From assembly GCF_964355755.1 (NCBI RefSeq), contig NC_092678.1, forward strand, positions 14,100,371 to 14,164,370: a DNA stretch of 64,000 nt, given 5' to 3'. The DNA comes from Antedon mediterranea. Lineage: Eukaryota; Animalia; Echinodermata. Made by a program: the position numbers and the translations under genes. The notes under the pieces were generated by a model. That model was not told where the DNA came from and did not search any database. It was given only the letters and a program-made list of their open reading frames with translations. This document shows positions 5,141 to 48,793 of the stretch, in pieces; the stretch's first letter is position 1, and every line of letters begins with the position of its first letter.

Positions 5141-5271
5141 AATAAAAAAAAAAAGTAACACTACAATAACAAAGGTTATCCGCTTGAGGCGGATAACCAA
5201 TAAATAAATAAATAAATAAAGATTTTGACAGAATCAAGAGGTTATATGCATATCATGCATATAACCTAATT

Positions 5272-6344: not shown

Positions 6345-6790
6345 AAGATTCTTGTATGTCCAGATATCGGTCTACGTCGTGGAGAATTGGAGAATATGAG
6401 AAAGGCAAATGATATATTTTACAGACTTTAGAAACGAGATTTGTTGTAACAAAAAAAAAAGTTAGGATTGCTTATAGAACTGTTTGAGTTGATAGGACAT
6501 GGGTGTATGGCTGCTAAAATAAAACAGTATGCAACAACAACAGATTACGTCTCACCTTACAAAAAAAAAATCTTTCTCGTTTACCCCACAGACGTATGAC
6601 AATTCATATTGCATCTGAAATGGGAGAGAGTGACATGAATATTTTAAAGCGGTTTCTAAAAGCCGAATTACCAACAGCAGAACTTTTTTGAGAATTCAAT
6701 TGAGCTGTTTAGTGTGATGGAGAAAATGGGATACATCTTTTCTCGAAAAAATTGGAAAGGAATAAAACAATTATCATATAATATCAGCAG
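6345..6790 (+). pseudogene. Decayed paralog of the tandem-DED (vFLIP-like) gene
   Basis: From 6366 the frame reads IGLRRGELENMRKANDIFYRL*KRDLL*QKKKLGLLIELFELIGH...YVSPY. An acceptor CCACAG|ACGTATG then gives RMTIHIASEMGESDMNILKRFL..., and after a frameshift ENSIELFSVMEKMGYI. It aligns with the gene at 7286, including the same splice junction. Confidence 0.75.
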
Positions 6791-7043
6791 TGACCGGGTT
6801 TAGACGAACTTTGTCACATGGTCTATGTTTTGGCCAGTCTACACCCAACTTTGAGACAATGCTATTGTTTTTAGCTTTTCTCATCTTGCTTTTCACACCT
6901 ATCAGAAACACTTCACTATTGTTCATGAGAAACAGCCAGTTTCAATCCCTCCCATTGTGTGAACTTGCCATTGTTTCTGGCTTTCACACCAGTCCCACCC
7001 TTTCCACTTATATTCCAAGTTTCCTCGACTTTCTGCATTCTCA

Positions 7044-7083
7044 CTCCTGAAGACGATCAAAGCATATTGATCGAAACGTCGAG
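7044..7083 (+). ncRNA. Minimal type I hammerhead ribozyme (Penelope-like element type)
   Basis: CTC-CTGAAGA-C-GATCAA-agcata-TTGATC-GAAAC-GTC-GAG: CUGAnGA core, 6-bp stem II, GAAAC, palindromic mini stem III with GUC cleavage triplet, short CTC/GAG stem I. Confidence 0.75.
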
Positions 7084-7285
7084 AAACTCAACAGTTCTTT
7101 TCAGAACTAATACATCGAATACAACCGTTTTGTCATAACTTTCGTCATCGATCACAAAGGATTCGTCATAGCTTTCGTCATCACAAACAGTATACAAACG
7201 AAAACAATGACAACTGCAGCTGCTATGGCCACTTTCGACTACTTAAGAGAGAGAGAGAAAATCATTCAGTTTATATTTGTTCACC

Positions 7286-7971
7286 ATGGGTGCAGGTAAC
7301 GATAGCAAGACATTTACTGACGCAACCTATAGCAAATTGATTGTCGAACTAGACAGTGCACTGACAAAAACTGATGTCTGTAAACTCAAATACTTATGTC
7401 TCGATAAAACGATCGGTCTTCGCTATGAAGAATTTGATGAAATCTCTTCATTCATTGAATTAGTTTCTCGTCTTGAAGGCATGAAGAAAGTATCAAAAAT
7501 GAACTTAAACTTACTCGAAGAACTGCTGGGTAATATAGGCGAGATTGAAATGGCGTGTAGAGTAGAACGATACTTGCAGAAAAAAGCGATGCCTATCATC
7601 TCACGGTATAGGTAAGTTTAATATTGATATTTGTTTTTTTTTTTCTTTTGTTTTTGTTTTGTTTTTTTAATATGGTCAGCAGAATCTTATTATTATTATT
7701 TTATCTATTTTCATCTAGACGTATGCTTGTTGATATTGCTTCAAATATTGATAAAGAGCAAGTGAATGAATTGAAGAATCTTCTGAAAAGCTACATGCCA
7801 AGAAAACACATAAAACGGATAAACAATTCGTTTGAGCTCTTTATCGAGTTGGAACATCTAGATTTCATATCAGAAAATAACGTAAATTTGATAGGCTCAA
7901 TTGGAGATTTGTTGAACGATATGTATATAACTATCGCCATTATTGCCTATGGCGGATCACGATGTTGGTAG
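7286..7971 (+). CDS. Two-DED protein (vFLIP/cFLIP-short-like), spliced: join(7286..7611,7719..7971), ~192 aa
   Basis: Kozak CACCATGG. Donor AG|GTAAGT at 7612 and pyrimidine-tract TAG acceptor at 7718 restore ISRYRRMLVDIASNID. DED hallmarks LKYLC, FIELVSRLE, NLNLLEELL and SFELFIELEHLDFISENN. No caspase domain. Confidence 0.85.
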
Positions 7972-8267: not shown

Positions 8268-9939
8268 TTAGTATAATGCCTTGTTTATGTACAGAGCGGC
8301 TATGACACCGGTTATAGAATTACTTTCTTCGTCTACCTTTCCGACAATCACTGTAGTCGCATTCTTTGTAGTTGAAACGGTGTTGAACTCGTCGGTGGGT
8401 AACTTTTCTTCTTGTATGTAACCGGAGAACTTACATCGAACGTACAGTCTATTTCTGTAAACTTCAACATACGCCCATGTATTCGTGATGTACTGTTGCG
8501 TGCTTATAATCTGAACACGAAGGCCGGAAGGTGATTTGAATATAACGTGTAGATAATTGTCAACGAGTCGCGCGTTAAAATTTGTCGTATCACTCTGATA
8601 GCTTAAAATGTTGCCGGAATTTCTTAGCGATATAAAGTAAAAAGAGACTGACGCTTTATCGATCATCAACAGCGGTGTTGTAAGCTTGACGCAGTCTGTT
8701 TGATTCAAAAAGAAACTTTTCGATGACGACGGTTTGTACCATAATTGATAGTCTATCCTGGTGTCTACGTCGCGTAAAATCATATTCTCTGGCTCAATTT
8801 TGTCAACGACGACCGGGCCGTCGTTGCAATCAGTGCGAAGATTCAAAGAATCCATCGTCCATCCGTTGATGGTGAAATCGGCGATAGTTCCATCGATCGA
8901 CGGTAAACGATTGTTTGCGCCAATTATAAACACACCATCCTGTCGGTAAGGAGACTTAAATTCAGACGGTAGCCGTTGCCATCGACTAACCACCTTCGAG
9001 TTTGAAGACAAGCGTACAAACCCCATGACCAATTCGAGAGTGTATTGATACCAAGTACCCTGCGTCATTCGTCCGATGTTTTTGATGACAGTCATACGCG
9101 ACAAAGACACAAAACTGAACTTCAATCGTCCTCCCGGTACGACAACAATTGACATTCGTACGTCGGCACTGTATTCATACAGTAGTATTTGTCGTTTTTC
9201 GTCCACCGTATCCAGTTTAATGTAGAATTCGATGACCATTGTGTTTTCTAAACGATTCAAAGTGGGAACGGTGAAGGAACGACAAGATTTCTTTTTCAAG
9301 TCAATTCTGAATGCAGACTCGAGTGGCGGTGCAGACGGTGTCGTCATGAACGTAACCTCGTCGACGACATCATCATCGTGTGTACACGTTTCGGCTATAC
9401 TCGGTTGTAATTGAAGATTGTTTACTTTCAACATTGTCACTGTACCTACAATCGACTTTAAAGTATCACTTGCGCCCACCTTAAGCGTTGTCACCACATC
9501 GTTGGGCGTAAACCTTTTCATCACTTGTGCCCATTCGTCGAAGGCCGTATTCAACGACAAGTACACTTGATTTCCTTTTCGTTTTATCAACACCTGGTAC
9601 CATTCTCGTATCGCAAGTTTTTCAATGCTGCTAAGTCGAGCCGTTTTCGACTTTGCTGTTGCCGAAGAGCTGCGGCTACGCAACTCTACGACTAAATGGC
9701 CGTCTTCTATCAAGACGGACGGTCCGAACGCTTCGGCGTTGTTCACCACGTTGGAATACATGATTTGTCCGTCTTCTTTTTTCGTGAGTTTCAACAAGAA
9801 TTTTACGTTCACCGTTTCATTGAACGTGTACAGGTCGTACGGATCGATATCGAATGCATAACAAGAATCGTTCGTCAACTTCATCTTCCAATCGCCGATC
9901 AATGAAACCGTATGATCTGCTGTCGTTGCCCGTGCGTTT

Positions 9940-9970
<31 letters not shown>

Positions 9971-11276
9971 CATCATTTTCGTTGAATGTGCAGTCTGTAA
10001 CCGTGTTGGGTTGCAGTAACCATCCGTTAAACTGAAAGGATGCTATGCAACCGGTTATCGACTGTGTTCTATTGGTACTGCCCAAATGAAATGTACCGTT
10101 CAAATCTAGGCTGGTACCGCCCATCGTATCGTTCAGCTTTGTCCAACCACCGACGTTGAAATCCGAATCAATTCTAGCCTGATTACCGATTCTGGAAACG
10201 TCGAAATGATACCAATTTTCGACAACGAGCACATGATCGCTGACAACTGTCAGCGATCCAGAACCCATGTTAAATGTAGCGTTCAATCGACCGTCGACGA
10301 TACCCAAAAACATATAATCCTCGTTGCCACTGCTGTACAGAATCTGTCCATCGGCGTCTTTGTTTAGTTTTATGTAAAACGATAAGAACACTCTGTCCTG
10401 ATAGTCGACGTCACTAGGCCATTGAAAAGTAGTAGAAACGGCGTGAGATAAGTGAAATGCACGTTCACCCTTTAGTAAATTTGCCCTGCTAACAGATTGC
10501 GTTGCAGTAGCGCCACGTTCTCGTTGCTGCTGCTGATGCTCAGTTACTTTGCACGTCTTCAGATTCTGCGGTAAGAGGCGTTTACCGTTGAACTGGAACA
10601 AAGCGAGACACGCGCTCACCGATGGGAACGTATCGGACGCACCTATGCCGTACAGATTGTTTGTGTCGAGGCGAGTGTAGTTTCCGTGTACACTCGACCA
10701 AGGTCCGAACAGACCGTTTGTTACGATTCTGGCCCACGATCCAACTCGTTTAACGGTGAAATGATACCATTTTCCAACTAAAACGTTCTCTCGACTCACC
10801 ACCGTCAACGGTTTCGAGCCAAGATCAAATGTGGCAGCCAGTCGACTGTCCAAAATTCGTATAAACATGTAATCTTTGTCACTGTTGCTGTACAGAATTT
10901 GCCCATCTCTCGATTCGTTCAATTTAATGTAAAACGACGCAGACATCTGATGTCGATAGTCGACCTTGCTTTTGTTTGCAGACAAATCAAATTCCAGTCT
11001 AGTGTTAAGGTCCACGTTGAACGTCGACTCATCGTCAAATAAAACGGTAACGTTACTTTGTCTGTCGGTTGTTATCATGTCCAGCACCTCGTATTCTCCC
11101 TCCGAGTTTGGACACGCAAACTCTCCGTTTCGTTCTATGTTAAACATACTCTCGCTTGAACATATCAGCGTTCTGTTACCGTTCGCAAGTTGACCGTATG
11201 GCTTTCCGTGACGTATCACCTTGCCATCGCAATTTAAAAAAAATAGAAACATAAACAACAACATCATCATCATCAT
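8268..11276 (-). CDS. Secreted protein with 4-5 laminin-G-like domains
   Basis: N-terminal signal peptide. Repeated units of SFYIKL..DGQILYS...DYMF..I.DGRL.A.F..GS....V.S......WYH..V.R.G, each ending ...GC.A.FQFNG. No obvious C-terminal TM. Confidence 0.85.
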
Positions 11277-11376
11277 CGTTTGTTAATTGTTAAAGACATG
11301 TCGTTTAAACGTTAATAACTTTTTTCTTTTCGTGCATTGACGTGATCCACGTGGAAAAAAAAAAGAGGAAGAGAAG

Positions 11377-12072
11377 ATGATTTCCCACCAGCGACAAATG
11401 CGTACCATATGCAATAGAATAGAAGAACGAAAGCGCCATTCGTTTGGATTATGCGTCCTGAAACCATTGAGTGAATGCGTTGCCGACAATAATGCAGCAA
11501 CGGCGGACATGGACAAAAAATGTCTAACGTTCGTAAGCAACGTCAAGTCAACTCTAGAGTTTCTGTGTCGCCAAAGTAACATACGATTAGAGCCGTTTCA
11601 GAAGGAAATGTGTAACGCTGTCATAGCTGGACGATTCAACAAATTGTTTGGAGATCGAGCGTCGAAGCTGAGAATTCCATCACTTTGCATACTCGGCGTA
11701 CTGTCCGACGAGGAGGCACAGTCGATGACCGAACCGGCTCGATGGCATCCGGCCGTACGACATTCTGCCGCTAGAAAGATAGACGAATTCAATAGAAAGT
11801 TTACGGTTGTCAGAGTGCCTCGACGTAGCGGCAAGAATCGCGCCGGTCAACTTGTGGTGGCATCTCTTCTTGTACACGAAAATAGTATATCCGTCGTTAA
11901 CTGGGCTCAGGATTTGAACTGCGCGCGTACCAATCGAGAAGACGTCATTCGTCTATTGGAGATGGCTCAACGACGATACGCGTTCACGTTCAAAGGTGTT
12001 CCGGATGGAGTACAAGTGTTGCAGTCTACGGGCACGACGGCAAACTTTAGAAGTAAAGCAAACACGGCAAAC
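11377..12072 (+). CDS. DNA packaging terminase ATPase/nuclease subunit (UL15/UL89 family), exon 1
   Basis: LEPFQK adenine-binding motif and Walker A VRVPRRSGKN (herpes PRRHGKT). Ends FRSKANTAN at a phase-0 donor AAC|GTGAGT (12073). Confidence 0.9.
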
Positions 12073-12104
12073 GTGAGTATTGTTGTTCTTATTTTTTTTG
12101 CATC

Positions 12105-13202
12105 ATGAGTCGCTCCGAGGCCTATCCAACGTTCCTTGCCGGTTTAACGTACATTTTCAAAAACACGTCCATCACCACCACCAGCCATCACGTGAAACTT
12201 GTCAATTTGATAGGCGCGTGCATTGACACAGCATCAAAAACATCGTACAAAAATAAACTGGAACGATGCAACGAGCAACAGCGACGTCATTTCGATGCGG
12301 CCGTATCTATCGGTGGTGGTGGTGGTGATGATGATGATAGCATGACGCCCAAAACGGCGTTCGTCTACTATTTTCTCGATACACTCGCTCGGCCGTATCA
12401 CAGACACATTGCTGCCTACATAACAAATTTTGATGAGTTAATGCAATGGATGCAAGCTGATCGTCGTCGCCGACGCAACAACCACCACCACCACCACCAC
12501 CACCAGACGCGAAAACGGTCATCATTTGTGGTGCCCTTAACCGACAGAATACACGATTCGGCCATTCTCAAATGCATTCTGTTCCAATTGAATCATGTGA
12601 AAAGAAAACCGTTGCATCCGATGATGAAAACAATTTTGGAGTTTACAAAGTCCAGTTGGCCGTTCAATCTAATGTTTGCCATACCGAATCGATCAAATGC
12701 ACTGGTAGAATGCGTTCTACTTTTAAACAAAACGCGCAATGAGAAATACTCTGTTTCGCTCATAACTCAAGCGCTGTCGTTATTAAGCAAAGATGAACTA
12801 TCCGAGATGAAGAGCATAATGTTTGTTCAGAAACGATGCTCTCAGATAGAATTCTTTTACGATCACAATCCAGCGGCATTTGGATCAGAATCGATTGTTT
12901 TTTGTCGCTACTGTTATATAATTTTAACTTACGTAGATCTGAAGAACAGGCCACCGACAAAAGGGATGTATATCGACGAGAATTCTCTCTTACCCACCTG
13001 TTACAACTGTCATTCGAGAAGATTGGCTTCTCTGTCGTTGGACGGTGCCGGTGTACGATTGACAGTTAAACAGCCCGATTTGGCAATGATGCGTTCGTGC
13101 CCTACTTGCAGTGAGATAACTTCTCGAACAATGTGCGTAACGTGTAAACGTATACAAGAAGAAGAAGAAGAAGAAGAAGAAGAAGACAAATTTGTTCTTT
13201 AG
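12105..13202 (+). CDS. Cys-rich Zn-finger protein, possibly UL49/ORF66-like late transcription factor
   Basis: 365-aa ORF with four C-terminal CxxC pairs (FCRYC, CYNCHS, CPTC, CVTC). Lies in terminase intron 1. The family call is by pattern only. Confidence 0.45.
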   Translation: MSRSEAYPTFLAGLTYIFKNTSITTTSHHVKLVNLIGACIDTASKTSYKNKLERCNEQQRRHFDAAVSIGGGGGDDDDSMTPKTAFVYYFLDTLARPYHRHIAAYITNFDELMQWMQADRRRRRNNHHHHHHHQTRKRSSFVVPLTDRIHDSAILKCILFQLNHVKRKPLHPMMKTILEFTKSSWPFNLMFAIPNRSNALVECVLLLNKTRNEKYSVSLITQALSLLSKDELSEMKSIMFVQKRCSQIEFFYDHNPAAFGSESIVFCRYCYIILTYVDLKNRPPTKGMYIDENSLLPTCYNCHSRRLASLSLDGAGVRLTVKQPDLAMMRSCPTCSEITSRTMCVTCKRIQEEEEEEEEEDKFVL

Positions 13203-13224
13203 ATATATTTTTTTTTTATTATTA

Positions 13225-13797
13225 TCAAGAAGGTACTTTTGAGCGATTAGGTGGTTCGGGCAAGTTGACAAGTTTATTACAAATCTCTCGGTCGACGAGC
13301 TCACGTGCCAATGTATTGTCATCATCATTCAATTCGTCCTCATCGCTGCTATCATCATCATCATCATCGTCCAACAATCCTCGAATTGAATCCATTGCAG
13401 TATTGTGTCTAAGTCGTCTGTTGTTAACGCTTCCTAAAAGTGAACATATCCTATTGGGATTCATGCTCTTCTCTGATTTTCTGAGAGAGTAATCTTCCTC
13501 CTTGAGTCGATCGTATTGCAGCCTGTCAAACGTTCGTAATTTAGACGAAAGTGCATCTTTCTCCAACTTTAACATGGCGTTCTGAGACGTGGTCAACATT
13601 CGTTCATAATTCGACTTTCGTCTGATCAACGACGACAGCATTTTCGCATCAATTCCATTCTTCAAACCTGACTGTATACTTTCTTGCATTTGCATCGTCT
13701 TTTCGTCGAATGTGTGTTGCATGGCGGCAATGTTGCGCATAGATTCTACTCGTTTTTGTTCAATGGCTTCGCCTCTTCTTTTTCTTTTACCAAACAT
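13225..13797 (-). CDS. Snf7/ESCRT-III-like protein
   Basis: ~190 aa, basic N-half and acidic C-half, helical. LIRRKSNYERMLTTSQNAMLKLE resembles the Snf7 alpha2 motif. DEDEL...LARELV..LPEPP tail resembles the CHMP4/6 MIM2-like region. Confidence 0.65.
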   Translation of the reverse strand: MFGKRKRRGEAIEQKRVESMRNIAAMQHTFDEKTMQMQESIQSGLKNGIDAKMLSSLIRRKSNYERMLTTSQNAMLKLEKDALSSKLRTFDRLQYDRLKEEDYSLRKSEKSMNPNRICSLLGSVNNRRLRHNTAMDSIRGLLDDDDDDDSSDEDELNDDDNTLARELVDREICNKLVNLPEPPNRSKVPS

Positions 13798-13834
13798 GTT
13801 TGCGTGCTGATGCAATAAGGCAGTATAGCGCACA

Positions 13835-14236
13835 ATGAAACCATTTGCGCCGTTAATAGTGACTTTTACGATATTCGTCGTTGTTCTGTACAGTCTTACG
13901 TCGAAATACAACTGGCAAGGGAATACGTACGATAAGGAGAAGATAAGCTACAAGCAACTGTTGACGTCCAATATAATTCTGTTTGCCATAACGTTCTACA
14001 GTGGACTGAAATATCTTCTCATCAGATACTATTCGAGTTACTACGGCGGTGGCCGGGGTAGACTCATGTTCATGACAGAGACTTTACTTCGCATGACGGT
14101 AATGATGGGAATCGATTACAGAGTGCAGAACATTATCGTGTCGCAAATGTCATCGCGTCTGGCCATCATGTTTGGGGATATCATGTCGATCGTCATCGAA
14201 GCCAGTATGGAACAGTACACGCCTCACAGTGGGTGA
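13835..14236 (+). CDS. Small membrane protein
   Basis: ATG start, two or more hydrophobic segments, fits between neighbouring genes. Confidence 0.55.
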   Translation: MKPFAPLIVTFTIFVVVLYSLTSKYNWQGNTYDKEKISYKQLLTSNIILFAITFYSGLKYLLIRYYSSYYGGGRGRLMFMTETLLRMTVMMGIDYRVQNIIVSQMSSRLAIMFGDIMSIVIEASMEQYTPHSG

Positions 14237-14965
14237 ATTCATCGATAGCGTACCGTATCGTATCCAGGCCACGCATGACTCTACAGCACGTTCATAGGTG
14301 AAATTGAGTACACGATCAGCGCGTTTAACAAGAAAACGTCTGTCATCGTAAAGAAAACAAAGTCCGTCTGCGCTTGGCATTCCGTCAAGATCGCATCGAT
14401 GGATCGTTAACGGACCACCTCCCGATACGGGCATGGACGAGAACATGTGCCAAATTAATAAACATTTGTACATGCTTGTAACTTGATCATCTTTATTTAT
14501 TTCTGTTGTCGGTGTCATTTTCTTCAATCCATTCACGTAGTCACAGACTCTTTCCACGTCCACGTCACACGCCTCCATCCATTTCCTGAACGCCGTTTCG
14601 TGTCCAATGATTGCCGGATCAACCACCGTACTTGGATCGACAACGAGACGAAAAAATGTACACGTTGCCGCTCTGCGTTCATCGTGTCTGTCTGGATTCG
14701 CCAACATACACTCGAGCAGGTTCCTACTCCAAACATCAAGATTACAATGCTCGAAACACGCGTACTGCTTGGACGCCATGCACCGACGGCGTTCGGCAAA
14801 ACACAACAGTTTTGCAATCGATGCCGTACACTCGAGACTAATTGTTTTTGGCAACAACGTATAGCTAACGCACGATTCTACATATCGAATTTCTTTCTCG
14901 ATTTCAATTCTAAGTTTTTCAACGGCATTCTTGACTCGTTTATCGATGCGTTTGGCAAAACTCAT
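14150..14965 (-). CDS. Hypothetical viral protein (Cys/His-containing)
   Basis: Complex ~270-aa region starting MSFAKRID. The upstream poly-His extension is a microsatellite artefact. Confidence 0.65.
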   Translation of the reverse strand: MSFAKRIDKRVKNAVEKLRIEIEKEIRYVESCVSYTLLPKTISLECTASIAKLLCFAERRRCMASKQYACFEHCNLDVWSRNLLECMLANPDRHDERRAATCTFFRLVVDPSTVVDPAIIGHETAFRKWMEACDVDVERVCDYVNGLKKMTPTTEINKDDQVTSMYKCLLIWHMFSSMPVSGGGPLTIHRCDLDGMPSADGLCFLYDDRRFLVKRADRVLNFTYERAVESCVAWIRYGTLSMNSPTVRRVLFHTGFDDDRHDIPKHDGQTR

Positions 14966-14986
14966 CGTAATAATTTGATGTTGATA

Positions 14987-15034
<48 letters not shown>

Positions 15035-15623
15035 ATGATGATGCTGGAAGTGGAAATACAACGAGTGATGTCTCTTTTTTTTTTGCTGTTTGTTCTGTTG
15101 TTTCGCTGAATACGGTAGTGACAAGATGATGACACTCATCTGTAAGGTTTTCATCTTTAATTCTACACCAAAAACATTTGTAGCCGACAATGGGACAGCA
15201 TCCGATCGGCATTGCCGGTATGGTTCCCATTACAGTCACAAATCTCCAAATTGTTGATAATCTTTCGAGAATTTTGAAAGAGTGCACATTGGTCCAGGCA
15301 AAGAGAACATTGCGTTTCAATATACTGTCCATGTCGGCCATTGTACAACACTCGGACGTTATCGTGGTTGTGTCGAACAAGAGACGTTCGATGAGCGCAA
15401 TGCATCGTGCGTAATAGAGAACATCTTGTTCATCGCCTTTTTTGGTACATATACTCTCCAAATTTCCTTTGAATTCCTTTAACAATTCTTTCAAGTAAGC
15501 GTTGTCTTCTTCTTCTTCTTCCTCGTCGTCGTCGTCGTGATGATGATGATGATGATGATGAGACCATTCTATCCATCTACGTTCAACGCGTGACTCTAAA
15601 CTTTTCCATAAATCAAACGACAT
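14940..15623 (-). CDS. Hypothetical viral protein with C-terminal Cys/His cluster
   Basis: 227-aa ATG ORF with GCCP..YKCFWC..ECHH. Confidence 0.6.
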
Positions 15624-15733
15624 AATCTAAAATATGGAGGTAATCAGTTGTCTCTCCTCTTCCTTCTTCTCCTTCTTCTGCTCATGTCGACGAGTATTCG
15701 CTATTAGATTGGTCAAGAGAAGATTGATTAGGA

Positions 15734-18700
15734 TTAGAAAGTTATCGGAGCTGGTAACTGGATCGTCTGTTGGGTCAAACATGGTGCTGCAGTGATTACC
15801 TTTGGATTGTGTCTAAGATTGTTTTCGAGAATACGTCCGACCAATTGTACATACCAATCTTTCTCCGACCAATCTATACGCATATCCTTGCCAAAAATTA
15901 CGTATCGTGCATCACCTCTACGGCGATACTTGCACGAATTGTCTGACGCAAGAAAACAAATGGGAACGCTACTTTGACTCGGTTTCACCAATGTCACGCC
16001 CGGTATCTTTCCCATGAACGAAATCACTTTCATTACAGTTCTATCGCCTTCGGTTACATCGCCTTTGCGTACGACCATAGGCGCAAAATATGTCGAGCCA
16101 CATCTGTCGGTCAATTTTGCTGCTGCTTCTACTGTTGATACATCTTCATCATCGGTGGAATTGATGTAATGTCTTGCTTGATTAATCACTTCGTTGAAAG
16201 TAAACTCTCCGGTTCCGAATAACTGATGATAGGACGTATTACTTGGACTGTAATCGACAACAAATTGTATTTTGTATTCATCATCATCCTCATTGCCACC
16301 ATTATGCTCATTATCATCATCATGTTCATCACCGTAATAGTCATGATTGTACTCAGCTTCATCGTATATCTCTTCCTCCTCCACTTTATCCTCTTCATCT
16401 TCATCATGATGTAACGTATATAACGAATGCGACGTACGTTTTTTATTGAAAAGTTTCCGTTGTAAGTTTGCAACCTGTCGTTCTCGTTCGCTGTTTGCAG
16501 TTTCAACTTTACTAGTTAAAAATTTAACATCAGACTTCAAATGTGCAATCTGTCCATCTTTATATAGATTTTGGCGCTTTTCTTGCTCCAATGACGCTTC
16601 GATATCTTTCATTCTTTCATGTAACACATCAGATCCACCATCTCCTCCTCCTCCACCGCCTCCGTCGCTTTGATTCTTTATGAATTCAGACAGTTTCAGA
16701 TAGGATTCGGATACTTTTCGCTGCGAATGTTCCAATTCCTTTTCGAGACTTTCGATGCGCTTTTGTGCAGTCAAGCTGTGATTTTTTAAAATAATTACCT
16801 GAGCGGCAAGAGAGGATATTTCTGTATTCTTGTCGTCGGATAACCGATGTGTTTCAGCTAAACTTTTTTCCTTGGCAGTAAACTTCTCTTGAAGTTTAGC
16901 GTTTTGCGTACACAACGAGTCACGAGCTTTTCGCGCTTCTTCTAGATCACGTATTGTCGACTTCAATTCTGTTTTGTGATTGCTCGACGCGTTCGCTGCC
17001 GACGTCAACTGTCGCTGTATAGCAGTGCTGTGTTCTTTTGCGACACGTTTCATCTCTGCGTCGTGTTTCTGTCCTAGTTTAGTTACTTCAGATTTCAGTT
17101 GTTTTTCGAGTCGATCACGTTCCTCGTCACGTTCCCGCGTGTGCTGTTTCTCGGCCTGTGTCAACATGTCGAGCATCTTCTTTTCAGTATCTTTCTTCGT
17201 GCTCTGTTTAGCTTCCGACACGTACTCGGCGTGTGTCTCGATTGACTTTTTCAGTCGCTCTTCTAAACGTTTTCGAGTGAAATTGTCCTCTGCAGCTTTG
17301 CTCGTCAACTCTCGAACCTGTCTTTCCAACAGGACACGATGTTGAGCTGCTTTGTCACGCTCCATCTTCACTTCTTCAACACGTTTCTTCCATTCATCTG
17401 TTTTTTCGTCGCCATCTCGTTTCAGTTGCGCTACCTTCTGTTCGGTCTCGACAAGAGTTTGTTTCAAATCATCTAGATTCTTTTCGTGTTGAACCGCATC
17501 TAGATTCTTTTCGTGTTGAACCGAGTTTTGCCTCTTGTCCTGTTCTTCAATCTCCCTTCTCATTTCGTCCAGCTTGATGGTGAACGTCGTGTTTGCGTTC
17601 ATCAGTTTATTGTTGAGTTGTTCTCTTTGCAGATGCGCCGAATCGGTGGTCTGTTGCAAGTCACGACCGAGTTTCTGTACGTTTTTCTTCTCGTTTTGCA
17701 GCTCATTGTTCAATTTTCTCAGATCGGTCAAATACGCCTGCTCTCGAGATTTTAACATGTTCTCTGCATCATGTTTTAACGAAGCAGAGTTTATTTTTTT
17801 GGCATCAAGTTGCGACGCCAAATCGTCAACATGTCGGCTCATCAACTGTTCATTTTTTTGTACGCTCGACTGATACAATCTGCTCTTTTCTTCGTACGTT
17901 TGCAAATCAGTTTCCAACTGTTGAATTCGCTGCCTGTACGTTGTCTCCGAAAGCGTGTTGGCCGTGTCCAATCTTCTGTTCAACACGCGCAATTCACCAA
18001 CTTCGTTTGTGAGTGCTTCGATGCGACGACTCGTCTGCTCGTCAACGTGTTCTTTTGACGATATCAATTCGGATTGCTTGCGCTTCAAAATCAATTCATG
18101 TGCGCGTGCTTCGTCCGTCTTTTTGTTAAGCAAGGCTTTTAGAGTGTCTGACTCGTCGACATTTTGCATTTCGGTGTCGTGAAGTTGTTGCTTCATTTCG
18201 TCCACCAAACGTTTACTGTTTCGCAGTTCGCCTTCGGTCTTGTCCAGTTTCGTTTCCAACTCTTTAATTTTTGCGTCGCTCACTCGCGTCTTTTTTTCAT
18301 TTTCTCTCGTCGACTCTGCATTCCTGGTGGCCATGGTCTTCTTGAACTCTTCGTGTTCTACTCGTTGAGTCTCGAGCGTGTTCAAAGCCGTCCGTCGTTC
18401 TTCTTCGGCTTTTGCTTTTGTCCATTGCATGACTTCAATCTGCGATTGGGATTCGGCATTAGAATCGGGCTGAGATGATATCCAATCTTCAATATCGTAG
18501 AGTTTTACGTGCATTGTACTATTGTGAGCGTTCACATCGTCCGAGATTTCACGCAATCTTTGAACGGTGTCTTCGTCCAAGATGGGCAAATCGTCGTTTG
18601 TTGAAGGTAAGATGCTGTTGGCCGTGTTCACGTAAGGAGCGAGCAGTTGACCGATGCTAGGTAAATCATCATCACCGTCACCTTCTTTTTCTTCTTCTTC

Positions 18701-20827
18701 TTCTTCTTCTTCGTGTACAATTGCGGTGTTCACCGGCATGCTTGCTATGGCAATAGATTTGAGCACAGAAATTGTATCATCGGTGTGTGTACGCGTTTCG
18801 CTGTTCATCACCGCCGGCGTCGTACCCGATTCGAGCACAGAAAGTGTGTCTTGGGTGGTGTTTGCCGGCATGCTTGCTATGTCAATAGATTCGAGCACAG
18901 AAATTGCATCATCGGTGTGAGTAGTAAGCGCGTCAGCAGTTTCGGTTTTCATCACCGCCGGCGTCGTACCAGATTCGAGCACAGAAAGTGTGTCTTGGGT
19001 GGTATTTGCCGGCATACCTTCCATGATGACCAGAGGTTCGAGAACAGAAAGCGTATCTGATGCGTTTGTAGTACGCGCCTCGTCGTCAACAGTTTCGGTG
19101 TTCACCTGCTGCTGCACCACCGACATATTATCAGCAGATTCTGTGTTCATCACCGGCATACGAGATTCAGAATCGGTAGTAGTGATGTTGGCGGCACGTT
19201 CACGCGCTTTAGCCTCCAAACTTAGCAGATGTTGGTAACTGAGTTGCGTTATTTCGAACCGACTTTGTTCGACCATTGCCATGCCTTCGGTGGCCGTGTC
19301 GAGTGAAATCTTGCGCGTTGATTCAGGAGATCTAACCGGTATATTGCAAAGAGCGTTGAGTAGAATAGCACATACGTTCGCCTCGTAATGGCAACAGTCT
19401 CTCCATGGCATGTCATCTTGTGCAGTGGGCGTTCCGAACGGAGGTCGTTCACATTGAAACGGTTTAAGTTCGTCGATCGTTCCAGTAACGAGTGCATGAT
19501 CTCTTAGACGAATCTTGAGAAATTCGTGTTTTTTAATGTACGACACGAGCGCACCAAACAAATGGTCAAAGTCAATGTCCAAAGCATTTCTTTCGTATGG
19601 CGCAAAGTCCTCTTGTATCTTTTTTGCCAACTTCCTGATCCATTCGACGGTGGGACGTTCCGCCGAGTCAACGGTCAACCACGGAGCATGTGCCGCGTTC
19701 CGTTTACTCTCAGCTGCCGTGATTTCCGCGTCGATTCTTTCAAAGTTCCAACTGTTTGTGATCTCTTCACTCTGTCCCAACACGAGATTCCACATGTCGG
19801 CTCTGGCGAGCAGTGTAGCATCGCCGATGTGATGAACTATGCGATGTAGTACGAGGCAAGCGAAAATCATGTACAGATTCGGTCTTTTGTCGAACAGCGC
19901 GCACACGTATTTCATCAATCGAAACGTGGTTCCGATTTCCACGTTTTGAATGTGCGTACATGCTTTCAACAATCTCTCGAAATCATCTTTACTTAATCCG
20001 GTTTTGTTGAAGAGAGCATCACGATCGCTGGAATTGTTACCTTGCGTAGATGTGTAGTGTTTCAGAAAAAAATCTTTCATTGTCAGTCTATTGCCGGCCT
20101 GAAACTTTCCCAGCTGTAGAAACGATTTCTCTTTTCCTGCGCCGCCACCGCCTATTACAGGCGACTGTGAATGTATACCTGGAACGGCAGTCATTGTCTT
20201 GAGATGTTTTGCAAAGTGTATCTTTTGTTGTATTAGATTACCGTCTTTGATGACGATTGAGACCCGAACTTGTTTCGAATTTAGAAAGCTACCGCCGAGA
20301 AACAAACTGTCGCACAATTTACGCGTTCTCTCTTTCATGTCAGCATGTTTGTTGATTTCTGTGATGATTTCAATCATTTTGATTATTTCACACAGACTTT
20401 CGTACAAGCTTTTAAGATTCTTTGCGTCGACAACAACTATGTGACCAGAAACGAACGCGTTTGAAAACTGTTTTGAAAAGCCGTCCATTCGAAGTAGCTG
20501 CGCTTTTAGACCCAGCATGGATCCATCTGGAGGGTAGCCGGATCTGTAAGCAGTCGATACCATTCTCATGAGCGTCGTTGTTGTGAGCGTCGGGTCTGCG
20601 AGTTCGTCAAGAACTCGTCCAAGATACGGCGTCATTTTTTTTGACTGTTTGCCAACCTCTTTATTATCGTCCCGTCCTTTTCTCTTTGTCGGCCTCTGTC
20701 TAACAGCCGTCGTGTCCATCAAAGTTTCGGTCTGTGATGATGTATACATGATGATGATGATGATTGTCTTCGAATTTACCATTATGTCATTAATGACATG
20801 TTGCGCATAATATGCGCAACATGTCAC
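15734..20827 (-). CDS. Very large coiled-coil protein (tegument or structural candidate)
   Basis: 1697-aa ORF: globular N-terminus, Thr/Ser-rich repeats, ~700-aa coiled coil, acidic linker and globular C-terminus. No Walker motif seen. Confidence 0.8.
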   Translation of the reverse strand: MTCCAYYAQHVINDIMVNSKTIIIIIMYTSSQTETLMDTTAVRQRPTKRKGRDDNKEVGKQSKKMTPYLGRVLDELADPTLTTTTLMRMVSTAYRSGYPPDGSMLGLKAQLLRMDGFSKQFSNAFVSGHIVVVDAKNLKSLYESLCEIIKMIEIITEINKHADMKERTRKLCDSLFLGGSFLNSKQVRVSIVIKDGNLIQQKIHFAKHLKTMTAVPGIHSQSPVIGGGGAGKEKSFLQLGKFQAGNRLTMKDFFLKHYTSTQGNNSSDRDALFNKTGLSKDDFERLLKACTHIQNVEIGTTFRLMKYVCALFDKRPNLYMIFACLVLHRIVHHIGDATLLARADMWNLVLGQSEEITNSWNFERIDAEITAAESKRNAAHAPWLTVDSAERPTVEWIRKLAKKIQEDFAPYERNALDIDFDHLFGALVSYIKKHEFLKIRLRDHALVTGTIDELKPFQCERPPFGTPTAQDDMPWRDCCHYEANVCAILLNALCNIPVRSPESTRKISLDTATEGMAMVEQSRFEITQLSYQHLLSLEAKARERAANITTTDSESRMPVMNTESADNMSVVQQQVNTETVDDEARTTNASDTLSVLEPLVIMEGMPANTTQDTLSVLESGTTPAVMKTETADALTTHTDDAISVLESIDIASMPANTTQDTLSVLESGTTPAVMNSETRTHTDDTISVLKSIAIASMPVNTAIVHEEEEEEEEKEGDGDDDLPSIGQLLAPYVNTANSILPSTNDDLPILDEDTVQRLREISDDVNAHNSTMHVKLYDIEDWISSQPDSNAESQSQIEVMQWTKAKAEEERRTALNTLETQRVEHEEFKKTMATRNAESTRENEKKTRVSDAKIKELETKLDKTEGELRNSKRLVDEMKQQLHDTEMQNVDESDTLKALLNKKTDEARAHELILKRKQSELISSKEHVDEQTSRRIEALTNEVGELRVLNRRLDTANTLSETTYRQRIQQLETDLQTYEEKSRLYQSSVQKNEQLMSRHVDDLASQLDAKKINSASLKHDAENMLKSREQAYLTDLRKLNNELQNEKKNVQKLGRDLQQTTDSAHLQREQLNNKLMNANTTFTIKLDEMRREIEEQDKRQNSVQHEKNLDAVQHEKNLDDLKQTLVETEQKVAQLKRDGDEKTDEWKKRVEEVKMERDKAAQHRVLLERQVRELTSKAAEDNFTRKRLEERLKKSIETHAEYVSEAKQSTKKDTEKKMLDMLTQAEKQHTRERDEERDRLEKQLKSEVTKLGQKHDAEMKRVAKEHSTAIQRQLTSAANASSNHKTELKSTIRDLEEARKARDSLCTQNAKLQEKFTAKEKSLAETHRLSDDKNTEISSLAAQVIILKNHSLTAQKRIESLEKELEHSQRKVSESYLKLSEFIKNQSDGGGGGGGDGGSDVLHERMKDIEASLEQEKRQNLYKDGQIAHLKSDVKFLTSKVETANSERERQVANLQRKLFNKKRTSHSLYTLHHDEDEEDKVEEEEIYDEAEYNHDYYGDEHDDDNEHNGGNEDDDEYKIQFVVDYSPSNTSYHQLFGTGEFTFNEVINQARHYINSTDDEDVSTVEAAAKLTDRCGSTYFAPMVVRKGDVTEGDRTVMKVISFMGKIPGVTLVKPSQSSVPICFLASDNSCKYRRRGDARYVIFGKDMRIDWSEKDWYVQLVGRILENNLRHNPKVITAAPCLTQQTIQLPAPITF
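18722..19070. repeat. In-frame tandem repeats within the large ORF
   Basis: Repeated MPANTTQDTLSVLESGTTPAVM and THTDDxISVL units. Confidence 0.85.
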
Positions 20828-21083
20828 GACGTACGTATATTATACGTACGTCGTGTGAAGAAGAAGAAGAAGAAGAACGAGAAAATGTCATGGCGTCGAT
20901 CGGCCGATGAACTAATTCAACGTAATTTCTGGTACATGACCACATCAACTGTAAATTCATCATCATCATCAACACCACCAACAACAACAACAACAACAAC
21001 GACACAATCATCATCATCATCATCAAAATCGTTGTTGAAGAAAGAAAACGTAATCAAGAAGAAAAAACACAAACGAAAACGTA

Positions 21084-21980
21084 CTAAGATTCTCGATTTA
21101 ATTTTGCCAAATGATAACGACAAATCTTTTCATTCGCCATGCTCTGTAACAACCTCGAGCACGCTGTCAGTTGAGAGGTCGACACCTGAAATATCGGAAA
21201 CATCAACCGATCACCTGGCATGGGTTTCAGTTGAGGAAAGCGTGGTTTTAGAATGACGCTTTCCGCCGAACGAATACCATTCAACGTGCTCTTTAGTAAG
21301 TACACGACCGTTTCGTGACCGTTGCTGAGTAGAAAGTCTTTCTTGGAATATTGTAACGTCGAGTAGTACATAAACACAGACATAACGTCGAAAATAAAGT
21401 CTACCACGTCGTCCAGCATGTTTTCCTCTGGAAGCGCTGTATCCGGTAATCTGTTTGCTGATACGTATTTTAGAAAGGTGTATCTGATTACGGACACGAT
21501 GTTCTGTTTGCCCATGTTCTCCAAAATCATTTCACAGGCCTTGTGTTCAAAGAAATTTACGTTGTTGTACTTGCATCGTTTTTTTCGATCGTACAATCGT
21601 TCCAGAACCTGACGTACGGTTGTGCCGAAACGAAACATTTTATCGTGTTTATTTCGCGTCGTTGTCGTCTTTCTAACCTCTTGCATGTTGTCGTATAGCG
21701 GCGTATCGAGTCCAACGACAATCGGTTCATATTCGTCTGTATAGAATTCTTTACCAGTCAATGCGCATCTTCGAGTGTTGTGATCTAAATTTTCCATGAC
21801 GCAGTCTGCCGACAATGAACAGGTGTGCGTGCGTAGCGACGACATGCACACGAAATTCTCACCGTCTTGCATGGGTTGCACGAACGTACATCTATTCGGT
21901 ACACATTCGTGAAGTTCGTCCACGTGATATATGTCGAAACGATTTGCTTGTAGATACGCGTTCAGAGCAGCTGTTGTCAT
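21084..21980 (-). CDS. UL92/ORF31-like (poxvirus A1/VLTF2-related) late transcription factor candidate
   Basis: HECVPNRC...FVCMSSLRTHTCSLSADC...RRCALTG fits the H.C..C / y.C....H.C....C / VC..TG pattern of the UL92 family. It lies antisense in the terminase intron next to exon 2. Confidence 0.65.
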   Translation of the reverse strand: MTTAALNAYLQANRFDIYHVDELHECVPNRCTFVQPMQDGENFVCMSSLRTHTCSLSADCVMENLDHNTRRCALTGKEFYTDEYEPIVVGLDTPLYDNMQEVRKTTTTRNKHDKMFRFGTTVRQVLERLYDRKKRCKYNNVNFFEHKACEMILENMGKQNIVSVIRYTFLKYVSANRLPDTALPEENMLDDVVDFIFDVMSVFMYYSTLQYSKKDFLLSNGHETVVYLLKSTLNGIRSAESVILKPRFPQLKPMPGDRLMFPIFQVSTSQLTACSRLLQSMANEKICRYHLAKLNRES

Positions 21981-21998
21981 CTTTATTTTTGTTTTCAG

Positions 21999-22565
21999 GC
22001 TTCAAGAGGAACCGGTTGTGATATGGGATGGATGGACGAGTATCCGTGGATAAAGCAAACGGCTATGCTATCAACTCTGCCAATCTTTCAACCTAAGAAC
22101 GTGTCGGTTCTTTTAACATCGTCGATGACTTCGAGTGATCACTGGTCGCAAGAGTTTGTGAATATTAAACACGATGGACGTGCACTGGTTAAATACATTA
22201 CTCAGTCGTACCTGTGCGATGCGTGCTTCGAGAAAGGAACGCGAACAGTGTGCGCTCACAGGCGACATTTGGTACCGGAACACATTGATGGAAACGACGG
22301 TAATGTCGTTCAGCAGATGATGAACCTCATAGCCACCGGAAGCTATGAACTAGAGTGTATGGGCATTCCCGTCTGTTCACCGTCTTTACTCGCCGAGCGA
22401 CTTTTTTCCGGTAAATTGCTAACCAAACTGTTTTCAGACGAAAGAAGATCCACCACAAGATCTGGCTTCTCATCGGGTCTGTTGATTGCCGTCGATCCAA
22501 CTCCGTCGGACGTGTCCGGCATTGGATTGGTTGCCGGTGTGTTAACGACGTCGGACGTTAGGCAG
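21999..22565 (+). CDS. Terminase exon 2
   Basis: Acceptor TTTTGTTTTCAG| gives ASRGTGCDMGWMDEY (equivalent to GIRGQDFNLLFVDEA, Walker B), then LLTSS coupling motif, Cys/His Zn motif and nuclease LIAVDPT..SGIG. Phase-0 donor CAG|GTAAGT at 22566. Confidence 0.9.
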
Positions 22566-23236
22566 GTAAGTCGAACGGATGGTATTTTGCACGCGGCGCC
22601 TCTTCTCTCCATAATTCTTCGAAGCGCGTACGTAGCGTGCCCTGGGAGCCCGGCCCGAATCGTAGACAGACCACCACAACAACTGGTATTCTGTACTCGA
22701 TTTCGAATCGTTGCAACGGCCACGGCCAACGGTGATCCGCATCCGACGGAATGCCACATTGGTTGATCGTACGTGTTGGTCAACAGCTGTACGATGATAT
22801 TGCGAATGCTATCTATTATCCAATGTTTATCGGTTGGCGTTGATGCTCTGTACTCACGTTCTACATCTGGTAAAAATGTCAAATTGAACATTTCTATTGC
22901 CTGTAAGAGAAACGTGTTCAATTGCGATATCTCTCGTTCTCGACCCAATTCAAATTGCGTGGCGGCCATCATTGCCGTTCTTGTGTAAGCCAGAATCGAT
23001 TGTTTTTGTCGTTGTTCGACCATATCTTGTACGGTTGCATCATTCATTTCCACCAACAACACTGTCTCTCTACCACACGTTCTCACAATCTTTTCGACAA
23101 TAGGTAATGCGGATGCGTTAATCTCGTCCGTTATAGCCGCCTTGTCTATAGCGCTCTTCCATTCGAAAAACATTCTTTGTCGTTCTTGTAGAAATTCCAG
23201 ATTGCAATACACGGGATGAAATGCATTCGTCAACAT
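22343..23236 (-). CDS. Hypothetical protein in terminase intron 2, overlapping exon 2 antisense
   Basis: 297-aa ATG ORF filling intron 2. The last ~70 codons overlap exon 2. Confidence 0.6.
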   Translation of the reverse strand: MLTNAFHPVYCNLEFLQERQRMFFEWKSAIDKAAITDEINASALPIVEKIVRTCGRETVLLVEMNDATVQDMVEQRQKQSILAYTRTAMMAATQFELGREREISQLNTFLLQAIEMFNLTFLPDVEREYRASTPTDKHWIIDSIRNIIVQLLTNTYDQPMWHSVGCGSPLAVAVATIRNRVQNTSCCGGLSTIRAGLPGHATYALRRIMERRGAACKIPSVRLTCLTSDVVNTPATNPMPDTSDGVGSTAINRPDEKPDLVVDLLSSENSLVSNLPEKSRSASKDGEQTGMPIHSSS

Positions 23237-23273
23237 TACGCTACCAATTGATTCTCTTTTTCCTTTTCTTTTT

Positions 23274-23455: not shown

Positions 23456-23989
23456 ATACTTGCTTTGAAACACCACGTTGCACATATGGATCGTATGGAT
23501 TCTTTACTGGACATGCACGCCCAACTAATAATAGACACGGTGAACAGGACATTGGCTACGTACAATCAGTTGACATTCATGCCAGTTCGTGTGTACGTAG
23601 AACGTAATACATCGCACGCACACGCCGCTCGCATGGCCAAGCAAGTAACGGATCGTTTTGCCGGTACGTCAGTAGACATATCTTTCGAAAAGGAGAGACG
23701 TCGAACGGACGGGCGTAGGTGTGTCGGAATTTGGACAAGAGACAAAGGAAATCTGGTACATTTGTCACAAATGTTGCTGGAGAACGATCGAGTCGTGTTT
23801 GCACAAGACATCGATGACGGACAGATGAGCATTTTACAGGATCAACTGTGTAACTTCAGAAGACTCGTAAAATCAGACGGTAAAATCACGATAAGTGGAA
23901 AGACGGCTGGTGTTCGTGATGATCTTGCCATGACGTTTATTTTGTGGTTGGCGTGGACTTGCTTTCTTTCTAATAAAGTTTATCAATAA
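23456..23989 (+). CDS. Terminase exon 3 (RNase H-like nuclease C-terminus)
   Basis: Acceptor TTTTACTACGCAG| gives ILALKH (cf. FALEH), then VYVERN (cf. AVEGN) and ISGKTAGVRDDLAM (cf. FSGK..DDL). AATAAA follows. Confidence 0.9.
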   Translation: MLALKHHVAHMDRMDSLLDMHAQLIIDTVNRTLATYNQLTFMPVRVYVERNTSHAHAARMAKQVTDRFAGTSVDISFEKERRRTDGRRCVGIWTRDKGNLVHLSQMLLENDRVVFAQDIDDGQMSILQDQLCNFRRLVKSDGKITISGKTAGVRDDLAMTFILWLAWTCFLSNKVYQ

Positions 23990-26390: not shown

Positions 26391-27710
26391 TCGTCGAAAG
26401 AGAGAGAATCTGTGTTGTTTCTTTGTGGAATTCAAAACGGATGCATGCAGCACTGTCGGTCGCACTGTACCATCGGAAAAGAGAAGCGGTGCGCACGCAA
26501 CAATAGTACCGTGCTCGAGTTTTATTTTTCTGTTGACAATCTGTATTCGAAATTCGTCGACAGCAGCAGAAGAAGCAGCAGCAGCAGCAACAGACTGTTG
26601 GAAAACAAAAGTGTCTACAACGCCGTTACAGCCGATGCGTTGAACAGTGTTTTCGTGTTTCACCTCGCCTATCCATTCACCGGGCGTAGGATGCAATGGT
26701 GCCGTTGTTTTCACGAACCTTCCCGACGGTACGTGTACAGTGATGACGGTGTTGCCGTGGAACGCTACAATCGTGTTTGCGTCAAAGAACGAATGCACAC
26801 TGGTACGTTTCACATTCTTTTGCTTTTCGTTTTCGTCCATGGAAATTGGATGTCTGAGTAGGACGTTCCACGTTGTTCGGGTACGTCGCAACATCACCAG
26901 AAGATGATCACCCGCTTGATCCACGTACCATGCGCATAGGTCGCGGCCGTGTTGACACGTTGCGTGCGACGTGTACAATTCACCGCCGACGCCCGTATCC
27001 AATGACTGTTCCACGCTCCACGCACCACTATCCAAATCGAACGTTTCAAATTCTTTAGCTCCACCACCGCTTAGTATCAACAAATCTTTGTTCATTCTCG
27101 TCAGGCATACCGATTCGTCTGTACGCTTCGTTGTAGAGTTTTGCAATCTTACGAACGTTCCAACGATGGCATTGTATCGATGAAGACGCATCGTCGCGTT
27201 CTCCTCGTCTGCTGGAGATACTGTGTACGCCAGATTCCGAACTACGGTAGTTCGATAGAACGGTGCCGTCATGAACGAAGCGGTAACGTGTACGTATTCT
27301 TCCAGCTGCTGTTGTGGTATTGATGGTGGTGGAGGTGGCGTTGTTGTTCCGAAAGTGGCAATTTGTCGATGACTGTGACGAACACCCAACGCCGATTGCT
27401 CGTTCAATCGATGATGATGAAACACTTGTTTTACATAATGTCTCAAATCTTGAACCAGTTGATTGATGGAGGAGAGACGTACAAACGCGATTCTGTACAG
27501 CATTTCCGAATCGTTCAGTAATCTGCCTCGTATGAGTTTAACGAGAGCGTGTTGTTTTCTTGGATGTTCCGTTTTGCCGTTTTTGTTAATCCATGTGTGC
27601 ACAAGATGCCAAAGATACGATTCTGGCATATAGTACACACTGTCGTGCGATTTACTTCTGTCGGCTGATCGTGTCTGGCCGTATCCAGCCAGGTCATCAA
27701 CTCTTCCCAC
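26328..27710 (-). CDS. Hypothetical protein, beta-rich C-terminal region
   Basis: 460-aa ATG ORF. Confidence 0.7.
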
Positions 27711-28207
27711 TTGAGTTCCTGTTCGTGCAGTTTAATTTTGCCAAACGTTCTGCAAATGGCCGAGTCGACGACATTCGTCAACGACCAAGATGAAATTCTG
27801 TCGGCGGTTCTTCTGGCTTTCAGCAGATCGTGCATGCACATCTCGTACACGGCAGACGTAAACACGCAGATGGTGTCCTTGCAGCCAATCTTCTCGGCTA
27901 TACTCAAGCAAGAGATTCGATCCTGATAGGAAAGAGTGGCGACAAAGTATGAGTTTCTATTCGTGTTCATGAACGTCAACAACGCGTCAACAAGTTGATC
28001 GTTTGCCATTCCAATAATGTTTACGCACCCTTTAGGCTTTTTACTCTCATACGTGGGTATTATCCAAACCATAATCGTTTTGTCTTTCGATGTACATACT
28101 CGAATCTGTTCAGATCCTTTGTAGCCCAACGTTCTCGGTCGTTGACCGACGTATGCTAGATCTTCACGCGCTTTGTGATGATTGACAAGCAAACGTTTCT
28201 CTTCCAT
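27515..28207 (-). CDS. Hypothetical viral protein
   Basis: ORF from MEEKRLL, ~230 aa, overlapping the start of the next gene. Confidence 0.6.
   Translation of the reverse strand: MEEKRLLVNHHKAREDLAYVGQRPRTLGYKGSEQIRVCTSKDKTIMVWIIPTYESKKPKGCVNIIGMANDQLVDALLTFMNTNRNSYFVATLSYQDRISCLSIAEKIGCKDTICVFTSAVYEMCMHDLLKARRTADRISSWSLTNVVDSAICRTFGKIKLHEQELKWEELMTWLDTARHDQPTEVNRTTVCTICQNRIFGILCTHGLTKTAKRNIQENNTLSLNSYEADY

Positions 28208-48759: not shown

Positions 48760-48793
<34 letters not shown>

Follow-up and report, generated by a model that had tools for sequence, protein, structure and literature searches.

In HCMV, UL92 occupies the terminase intron close to exon 2, on the opposite strand. In KSHV, ORF30 to ORF33 run antisense between ORF29A and ORF29B, with ORF30 (UL91) facing exon 2 and ORF31 (UL92) in second place (PMC5371899). 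It has been demonstrated that UL92 is essential for late transcription (PMC4893493), and the gene has been described as a gain made in the lineage ancestral to beta- and gammaherpesviruses (10.1101/423525), while the role of UL92/ORF31 within its complex is described as poorly understood (10.1101/728139). What was captured near the KSHV complex included no general transcription factors of the cell, and a functional tie has been reported between KSHV ORF29 (terminase) and late transcription (PMC10138851). UL92-like genes are also found in mirusviruses, in which the UL92/ORF31-like cluster gu_c_584 is a core gene listed for 66.7% of the genomes of that study (PMC10132985 source data) and TBP and UL92-like genes are both carried (PMC10132985). 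The terminase has been described as the single gene by which the herpesvirus families are clearly connected (PMC3230846, PMC5601938); it has three exons in Alloherpesviridae (ORFs 62, 69 and 71 in IcHV1; PMC3230846), two in Herpesviridae (PMC13595911) and none in malacoherpesviruses (PMC2994540), and mirusvirus terminases are multi-exon or trans-spliced (PMC12768974). Within the open-access literature searched, UL92 was not found to be connected with allo- or malacoherpesviruses, with VLTF or with ORF68; subscription papers and supplements may differ in this regard. Here we describe a UL92-like gene that lies directly against a predicted terminase exon in a 64-kb stretch of DNA (the window), the source of which we infer to be a herpes-like (alloherpes-like) virus of an animal.

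The UL92-like gene and terminase exon 2

The locus comprises the following features:

11377..12072, + strand: terminase ATPase subunit, predicted exon 1, with a Walker-A-like motif recognised by eye and a GTGAGT donor
20794-20855: two abutting perfect hairpins with 16- and 15-bp arms and AT-rich centres, between the UL92-like gene and a 1682-aa ORF
21084..21980, - strand: UL92-like gene, very probably of that family, 298 aa, with an N-terminal Cys/His module predicted to bind zinc (residues ~24-80) and a helical domain predicted to be of the cyclin type (~105-290)
21981..21998: 18-nt spacer, with a pyrimidine tract and the intron 1 acceptor AG on the + strand and the A-rich leader of the UL92-like gene on the - strand
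21999..22565, + strand: terminase predicted exon 2, from Walker B to the start of the nuclease domain, with a GTAAGT donor
22343..23236, - strand: antisense gene in intron 2, of no family, its 3' end extending 223 nt into exon 2
23456..23989, + strand: terminase predicted exon 3, nuclease domain (Pfam DNA_pack_C, E 0.0012)

The whole ORF at 21084..21980 matches the Pfam family Herpes_UL92 (PF03048) at E 3.8e-4, with 20.8 bits against a cut-off of 21, and its residues 1-127 reach 21.4 bits, the match lying on residues 41-83; the conserved N-terminal Cys/His cluster of the Pfam family is present in the window protein. The closest relative (P0001), which is 48% identical and has no UL92 match of its own, was combined with the window ORF into a two-sequence search profile, which retrieved nine relatives among 1.84 billion representatives. 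Three of the nine match Pfam UL92 (P0003 at 2.1e-8, P0004 at 3.7e-8 and P0005 at 5.5e-5; 23.5-34.7 bits), having themselves been found by the profile at E 1.5e-29 to 1.8e-20, and the other six show no UL92 match at all in Pfam. In the family alignment C26, C45, H52, C54, C60 and C72 are invariant in 10/10 rows. True UL92 proteins were not retrieved by the two-sequence profile at E 0.001, so that the tie to UL92 is transitive and remote. Taken together, these data make descent from the UL92 family very probable, and they bear out the sequence-only reading in its central claim of a UL92-like ORF lying antisense in the terminase intron. A tree of the 10 family rows, which includes no named references, shows long branches for P0009 and P0010 and was set aside as a guide to placement. 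As for other searches, a word-index protein search returned only one close relative of the ORF, and its profile version two members of the known family; no relatives were found in viral-contig scans, in one of two metagenome scans or in a genome scan, the ESM Atlas gave no usable match for this ORF or for the intron-1 ORF at 12105, and sequence searches of PHROGs, NCBIfam and the PDB returned nothing or noise. An ORF at 20798..21256 (+), which overlaps the 3' end of the UL92-like gene, is Ser/Thr/Lys-rich, shows by eye no match in the annotation of the second virus described below and was treated as spurious.

The terminase exons are predictions from DNA, and the sequencing runs were compared as contigs only. 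Exon 1 matches Pfam DNA_pack_N at E 0.011, and exon 2, on which Pfam found no match, begins in frame with a Walker-B-like stretch ending MGWMDE, its acceptor consisting of a pyrimidine tract and a CAG ending at 21998, with the frame opening at 21999. All joints are in phase 0 (232+189+177 codons). The 12072/21999 joint was absent among the matches from four runs, of which one, presumed to be RNA, covers the stretch in short pieces only. The sequence-only reading had implied a two-exon terminase, which the three predicted exons replace, and had ended the locus at 22023, which is the first in-frame ATG within exon 2 rather than the start of the exon at 21999. On the other hand, its spacing of 18 nt between the ATG at 21980 and exon 2 is exact.

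A second virus contig, L001 (10.6 kb), the only one of the nine relatives with DNA context and thus the source of the synteny described here, encodes P0004, which is 29% identical to the window protein. Its gene order (UL92-like gene, exon 2, antisense gene, exon 3) matches that of the window, with the exons on the strand opposite P0004. Exon 2 is 52% identical and has its acceptor and donor at the same codons as in the window, exon 3 is 43% identical and matches DNA_pack_C at 3.9e-6, and a homologue of 22343..23236 stands at the matching place (tblastn E 3e-12), although it ends short of most of exon 2. The gap between exon 2 and the first ATG of the UL92-like gene is 69 nt in L001; the head-to-head layout is therefore conserved between the two viruses, whereas the 18-nt length of the gap is not, and neither spacer leaves room for a UL91-like ORF between the UL92-like ATG and exon 2. 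Beyond the UL92-like gene, L001 continues for ~900 nt (9710-10624) that are AT-rich and without a long ORF, and it contains no exon 1; this AT-rich stretch is perhaps a genome end or a host junction. L001 also carries two tandem paralogous ORFs of 580-600 aa without a Pfam family (441-4198).

No longer hairpins than those at 20794-20855 occur in the window. In three runs ~35 nt of them are missing from the contigs, and the pair is a candidate origin or regulatory element.

The surrounding viral block and its flank

Viral-type genes form a dense block from ~7.2 kb of the window onward. A Pfam scan of the window proteins recognised the terminase halves together with laminin G, Ig and RING domains, and the capsid protease matched the Herpes_ORF28 family at E 2.2e-7 (30.8 bits, below the cut-off of 40); among the window proteins only the protease matched an alloherpes-numbered Pfam family. 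Several further genes of the block are of interest:

7286-7971, + strand: vFLIP-like spliced gene with a pair of death effector domains (1e-12 and 1.5e-13 in Pfam)
8268-11276, - strand, and 47241-49667, + strand: genes for secreted or surface-type proteins, in which Pfam recognises four laminin G and several Ig domains
13225-13797, - strand, and 42708-43496, + strand: helical ORFs, Snf7/ESCRT-III-like by eye
61969-62553, + strand: weak match to a Rel-homology DNA-binding domain (E 0.003), just upstream of the protease gene

In the vFLIP-like gene a short intron (GTAAGT/poly-T) divides the two death effector domains, and the laminin G gene shares with terminase exon 1 a common 100-nt divergent promoter region. 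Of the two Snf7-like ORFs, only 42708-43496 gives a Pfam Snf7 match (E 0.17); Snf7 has been termed a mirusvirus core function (PMC12768974). The motif TATTAA stands 41-61 nt upstream of both Snf7-like ORFs and of the laminin G gene.

The stretch is present, whole or in part, in nine runs from four studies, none of them listed as RNA, and in two of the four runs compared a single contig covers the UL92-like gene together with the beginning of exon 2 (21038-22334 in run X1 and 21038-22202 in run X5); these observations together indicate that the DNA is not an assembly artefact. In X1 and X5, contigs that match 11300-23240 only in short patches also occur beside near-identical ones, which suggests that further related viruses are present in the same samples.

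Positions 1-7200 look like animal host DNA: they lack any ATG-started ORF of 80 codons, have a GC content of 0.31-0.35, lower than the rest, and contain a tandem duplication of ~1.56 kb in 305-nt units as well as a repeat (6830-7115) that is very high-copy in all four runs compared. From this host-like character it follows that the virus may be integrated. In run X5 a single contig (7086-7508) connects the end of the repeat with the death effector domain gene. The virus is thus possibly integrated in animal DNA, which contig depths cannot prove.

Predicted fold, candidate partners and alternative readings

The UL92-like protein was modelled from a 16-row alignment (mean pLDDT 74.7, pTM 0.53); in the model a disordered linker stands between a small beta module and a helical domain. 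Foldseek gave no match reaching E 0.001. Among the best 50 rows against BFVD, the first is an uncharacterised phage protein, the second black bullhead herpesvirus ORF68 (E 0.038), the fifth wood mouse herpesvirus UL92 (E 0.089, TM 0.17/0.25), the ninth ranid herpesvirus 2 ORF70 and the eleventh a salmonid herpesvirus 2 ORF68 homologue (E 0.30), with viral TFIIBs in seventh and twentieth place; the herpes rows reach TM-scores of no more than 0.17-0.24. When Foldseek's top PDB chains were re-aligned (VIA), a procedure that covers these chains only and may miss folds that Foldseek ranked low, the first 34 rows were all TFIIB/TFB/Brf1 or cyclin (Z 8.6 to 6.1), and the first unrelated row stood at Z 5.3. 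Residues ~105-290 align with the first cyclin repeat of human TFIIB at Z 8.6 (rmsd 2.9 over 100 residues), a value that is modest for a helical domain and in the range which the tool terms a common arrangement. A sequence signal for archaeal TFB was not detected (score 16.1, within the 9.4-24.9 of shuffles). A TFIIB-like fold appears quite probable from the model. Relative to TFIIB/TFB/Brf1 and cyclins, the likeness lies in the helical domain and in a predicted N-terminal metal-binding module, and the differences from TFIIB/TFB/Brf1 lie in the presence of one repeat only, with insertions, and in an identity of 8-11%. The Cys/His pattern presumably differs from that of the TFIIB ribbon.

We lean towards the view that 21084..21980 is a remote UL92-family member, back-to-back with predicted exon 2, which acts as a one-repeat TFIIB-like initiation factor for viral promoters. 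Such a protein would help host RNA polymerase II to start on viral, probably late, promoters, as one of a few viral factors by which the polymerase is positioned there (PMC4893493), and its zinc module and single cyclin-type repeat would replace part of TFIIB. That none of the cell's general transcription factors were captured near the KSHV complex fits such a viral stand-in (PMC10138851), and the late-transcription role is one that we carry over by analogy from UL92/ORF31 of beta- and gammaherpesviruses. As to position, the promoter of the UL92-like gene would lie inside exon 2 coding DNA and the branch point of intron 1 inside the gene's own first codons, with the spacer serving as a pyrimidine tract in one direction and as an A-rich leader in the other. 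Two genes arranged in this way would be physically interlocked and would resist rearrangement, which is the simplest reason we can offer for a linkage kept through long descent; co-ordination of packaging and late transcription, by analogy with KSHV ORF29, may be an additional benefit.

If the protein works with other viral factors, candidates for these may be sought in intron 1:

12105..13202, + strand: 365-aa ORF with four C-terminal CxxC pairs, candidate UL49/ORF66 counterpart
14150..14965, - strand: ORF, no family found in Pfam, PHROGs or NCBIfam
14940..15623, - strand: ORF, no family found in Pfam, PHROGs or NCBIfam
15734..20782, - strand: ORF of 1682 aa immediately downstream of the UL92-like gene, its C-terminal half long and coiled-coil-like by eye
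20366-20455, - strand: weakly TBP-like patch, residues 110-139 of the 1682-aa ORF

The ORF at 12105, which lies on the terminase strand, has its CxxC pairs at residues 267, 299, 332 and 344, and the word-index protein search found one relative, 53% identical, in which the cysteines are kept. KSHV ORF66 has four CxnC motifs, at 295, 341, 393 and 424 (10.1101/728139), so the count is equal whereas the spacing between motif starts is not (32/33/12 against 46/52/31). No UL49 family match was obtained in Pfam, PHROGs or NCBIfam. The model of this ORF from two sequences (pLDDT 35.6) is unusable, which renders its fold search meaningless, and when its residues 140-352 were paired with the UL92-like protein in a predicted complex, the score was 0.00, with alignments unused and the partner fold uncertain, an outcome that speaks neither for nor against an association. 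The patch in the 1682-aa ORF matches Pfam TBP at E 0.12-0.14 (12.5 bits, the cut-off being 22.9), and Pfam lists no other family for the fragment. Profiles from 25 archaeal TBPs gave no significant match among 404 six-frame ORFs and 42 listed window proteins, the patch being the top of the 42 (5.4 bits, next -0.9; 3/200 shuffles as high), and a phmmer search of the PDB returned no TBP; we treat the patch as a lead only. An ORF at 27515..28207, read by eye as TBP, was rejected after Pfam and TBP profile searches.

With respect to late promoters, TATTWAA occurs upstream of 1/42 genes (shuffle mean 2.6) and before none of six genes classed as putatively structural by eye, without recourse to transcript starts; TATTA occurs upstream of 16/42 genes against a shuffle mean of 9.5 (5/200 shuffles as high) and of 1/6 putative structural genes. 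The UL49-like ORF of the sequence-only reading does have four CxxC pairs, while kinship with UL49 found no profile support; the ORFs at 12105..13202, 14150..14965 and 14940..15623 gave no UL49, UL79, UL87 or UL95 match in Pfam, PHROGs or NCBIfam; the late-promoter motif that this reading had asked for did not appear at the putative structural genes; and poxvirus VLTF2 (A1), which it had named as a possible relative of the UL92-like protein, matched neither in the Pfam scans nor among the 50 BFVD rows listed, the fold lead being TFIIB/cyclin instead. Its hint of a viral pre-initiation complex stays a hint: no match to the UL79, UL87, UL91, UL95 or UL49 families was found among the window proteins scanned with Pfam (41 for UL79 and UL95), in a scan whose filters drop weak matches and in a window that is part of a genome.

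A multi-subunit complex nested in intron 1, in which the UL92-like protein, the ORF at 12105 and the TBP-like 1682-aa protein together drive late genes, would account for the four CxxC pairs kept in the relative and matched in number by ORF66 (10.1101/728139), for a TBP-like patch that stands out among the window proteins as a match to TBP and no other Pfam family, and for the co-occurrence of TBP and UL92-like genes in mirusviruses (PMC10132985). We nevertheless regard it as unlikely, given that the CxxC spacing differs from that of ORF66, that none of the five other families was matched by the window proteins scanned, that the patch spans 30 residues, far below the cut-off, and was chosen after the fact, with no TBP in the PDB search, and that the TATT motif is not enriched at putative structural genes. 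The failure to find either a partner or a promoter motif in the window could also be taken to mean that the protein shares its descent with UL92 yet does another job, in general or early transcription or as a cyclin-like protein, and that its place beside exon 2 is an inherited overlap; cyclins align nearly as well as TFIIB (Z 6.1-7.8 against 6.3-8.6), and the protein exceeds the 191 positions of the Pfam model by ~100 residues. We doubt this, too, since the Cys/His module, the helical domain and the UL92 profile match indicate a transcription-factor family, the only tested members of which act in late transcription (PMC4893493).

The positional likeness to beta- and gammaherpesviruses might also be a coincidence, the linkage having arisen in the window lineage alone and ORF68 being unrelated. 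UL91 does intervene in KSHV (PMC5371899), every ORF68 match lies above E 0.001, and in L001 the UL92-like gene is followed by the ORF-free ~900 nt rather than by the rest of the intron block, from which it follows that the block is not fixed. Yet two ORF68-named and two frog herpesvirus proteins appear in the best 50 rows from a BFVD library of all viral families, and by a rough estimate from the 42 listed genes a given gene would stand beside exon 2 by chance about once in 40 cases, so that coincidence seems improbable to us.

Comparison with described viruses

UL92, ORF31, BDLF4 and U63 of beta- and gammaherpesviruses are subunits of the late viral pre-initiation complex. The window protein matches their family profile across the Cys/His module and a portion of the helical domain, and its gene shares the antisense position in the terminase intron near exon 2. 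The differences are that the protein has 298 aa against the 191 positions of the Pfam model, that the gene faces exon 2 directly, with no UL91/ORF30 between, that the terminase has three exons, and that neither the other five subunits of the late complex nor its TATT motif was recovered in the window. The arrangement that the sequence-only reading had called the same as in HCMV and KSHV is thus the same in orientation and in nearness to exon 2, and departs in having no UL91 between the two, where KSHV has ORF30, and in the presence of a second intron.

The three-exon terminase is a trait of Alloherpesviridae that is found here as a prediction, with the exon 2 borders and the start of exon 3 kept in L001. 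From the exon numbering in IcHV1 (62, 69 and 71) it can be deduced that ORF68 neighbours exon 2 (ORF69) by number and that intron 2 holds a single ORF, as it does here. Alloherpesvirus ORF68, the function of which is unannotated in the BFVD rows, resembles the window protein in its weak structure matches (E 0.038 and 0.30) and in adjoining exon 2 by number; black bullhead herpesvirus ORF68 differs in length (405 aa against 298), and homology is not significant. We consider that alloherpesvirus ORF68 is likely to be the same gene in the same slot and that the head-to-head layout probably occurs in fish herpesviruses as well, which would give an unannotated gene of fish herpesviruses that can be cultured a function open to testing.

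A much bolder extension, to which we give little credence at present, is that the UL92-exon 2 unit predates the split of Allo- and Orthoherpesviridae, that ORF68 of fish and frog viruses is an unrecognised UL92, that in the window lineage a minimal late-transcription kit (TFIIB-like UL92, a UL49-like CxxC protein and a TBP-like domain on a giant coiled-coil protein) is nested in the terminase intron, and that alphaherpesviruses lost the system. If this were true, loss by alphaherpesviruses would take the place of a gain by beta- and gammaherpesviruses.

In mirusviruses, the cluster gu_c_584 is alike, by its description, in being a UL92-like gene of a duplodnavirus that is not an orthoherpesvirus, although those viruses have plankton hosts and the window virus carries animal-type genes (the death effector domain pair, Ig and laminin G), and no position beside the terminase is stated in the source-data rows (PMC10132985). 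The idea of a UL92 outside Orthoherpesviridae, put forward in the sequence-only reading, probably holds for the window and is not new as such. What appears to be new is a UL92 relative that is tied to terminase exon 2, in a conserved manner, in an alloherpes-like lineage, together with the ORF68 lead. A UL92 relative against exon 2 would add to the terminase a second shared gene and a shared position across the herpesvirus families, would offer a TFIIB-like reading for UL92/ORF31 and would give an evolutionary side to the tie between terminase and late transcription reported in KSHV (PMC10138851). In conclusion, such an alloherpes-like relative would bridge the UL92-like genes of mirusviruses and those of animal herpesviruses.
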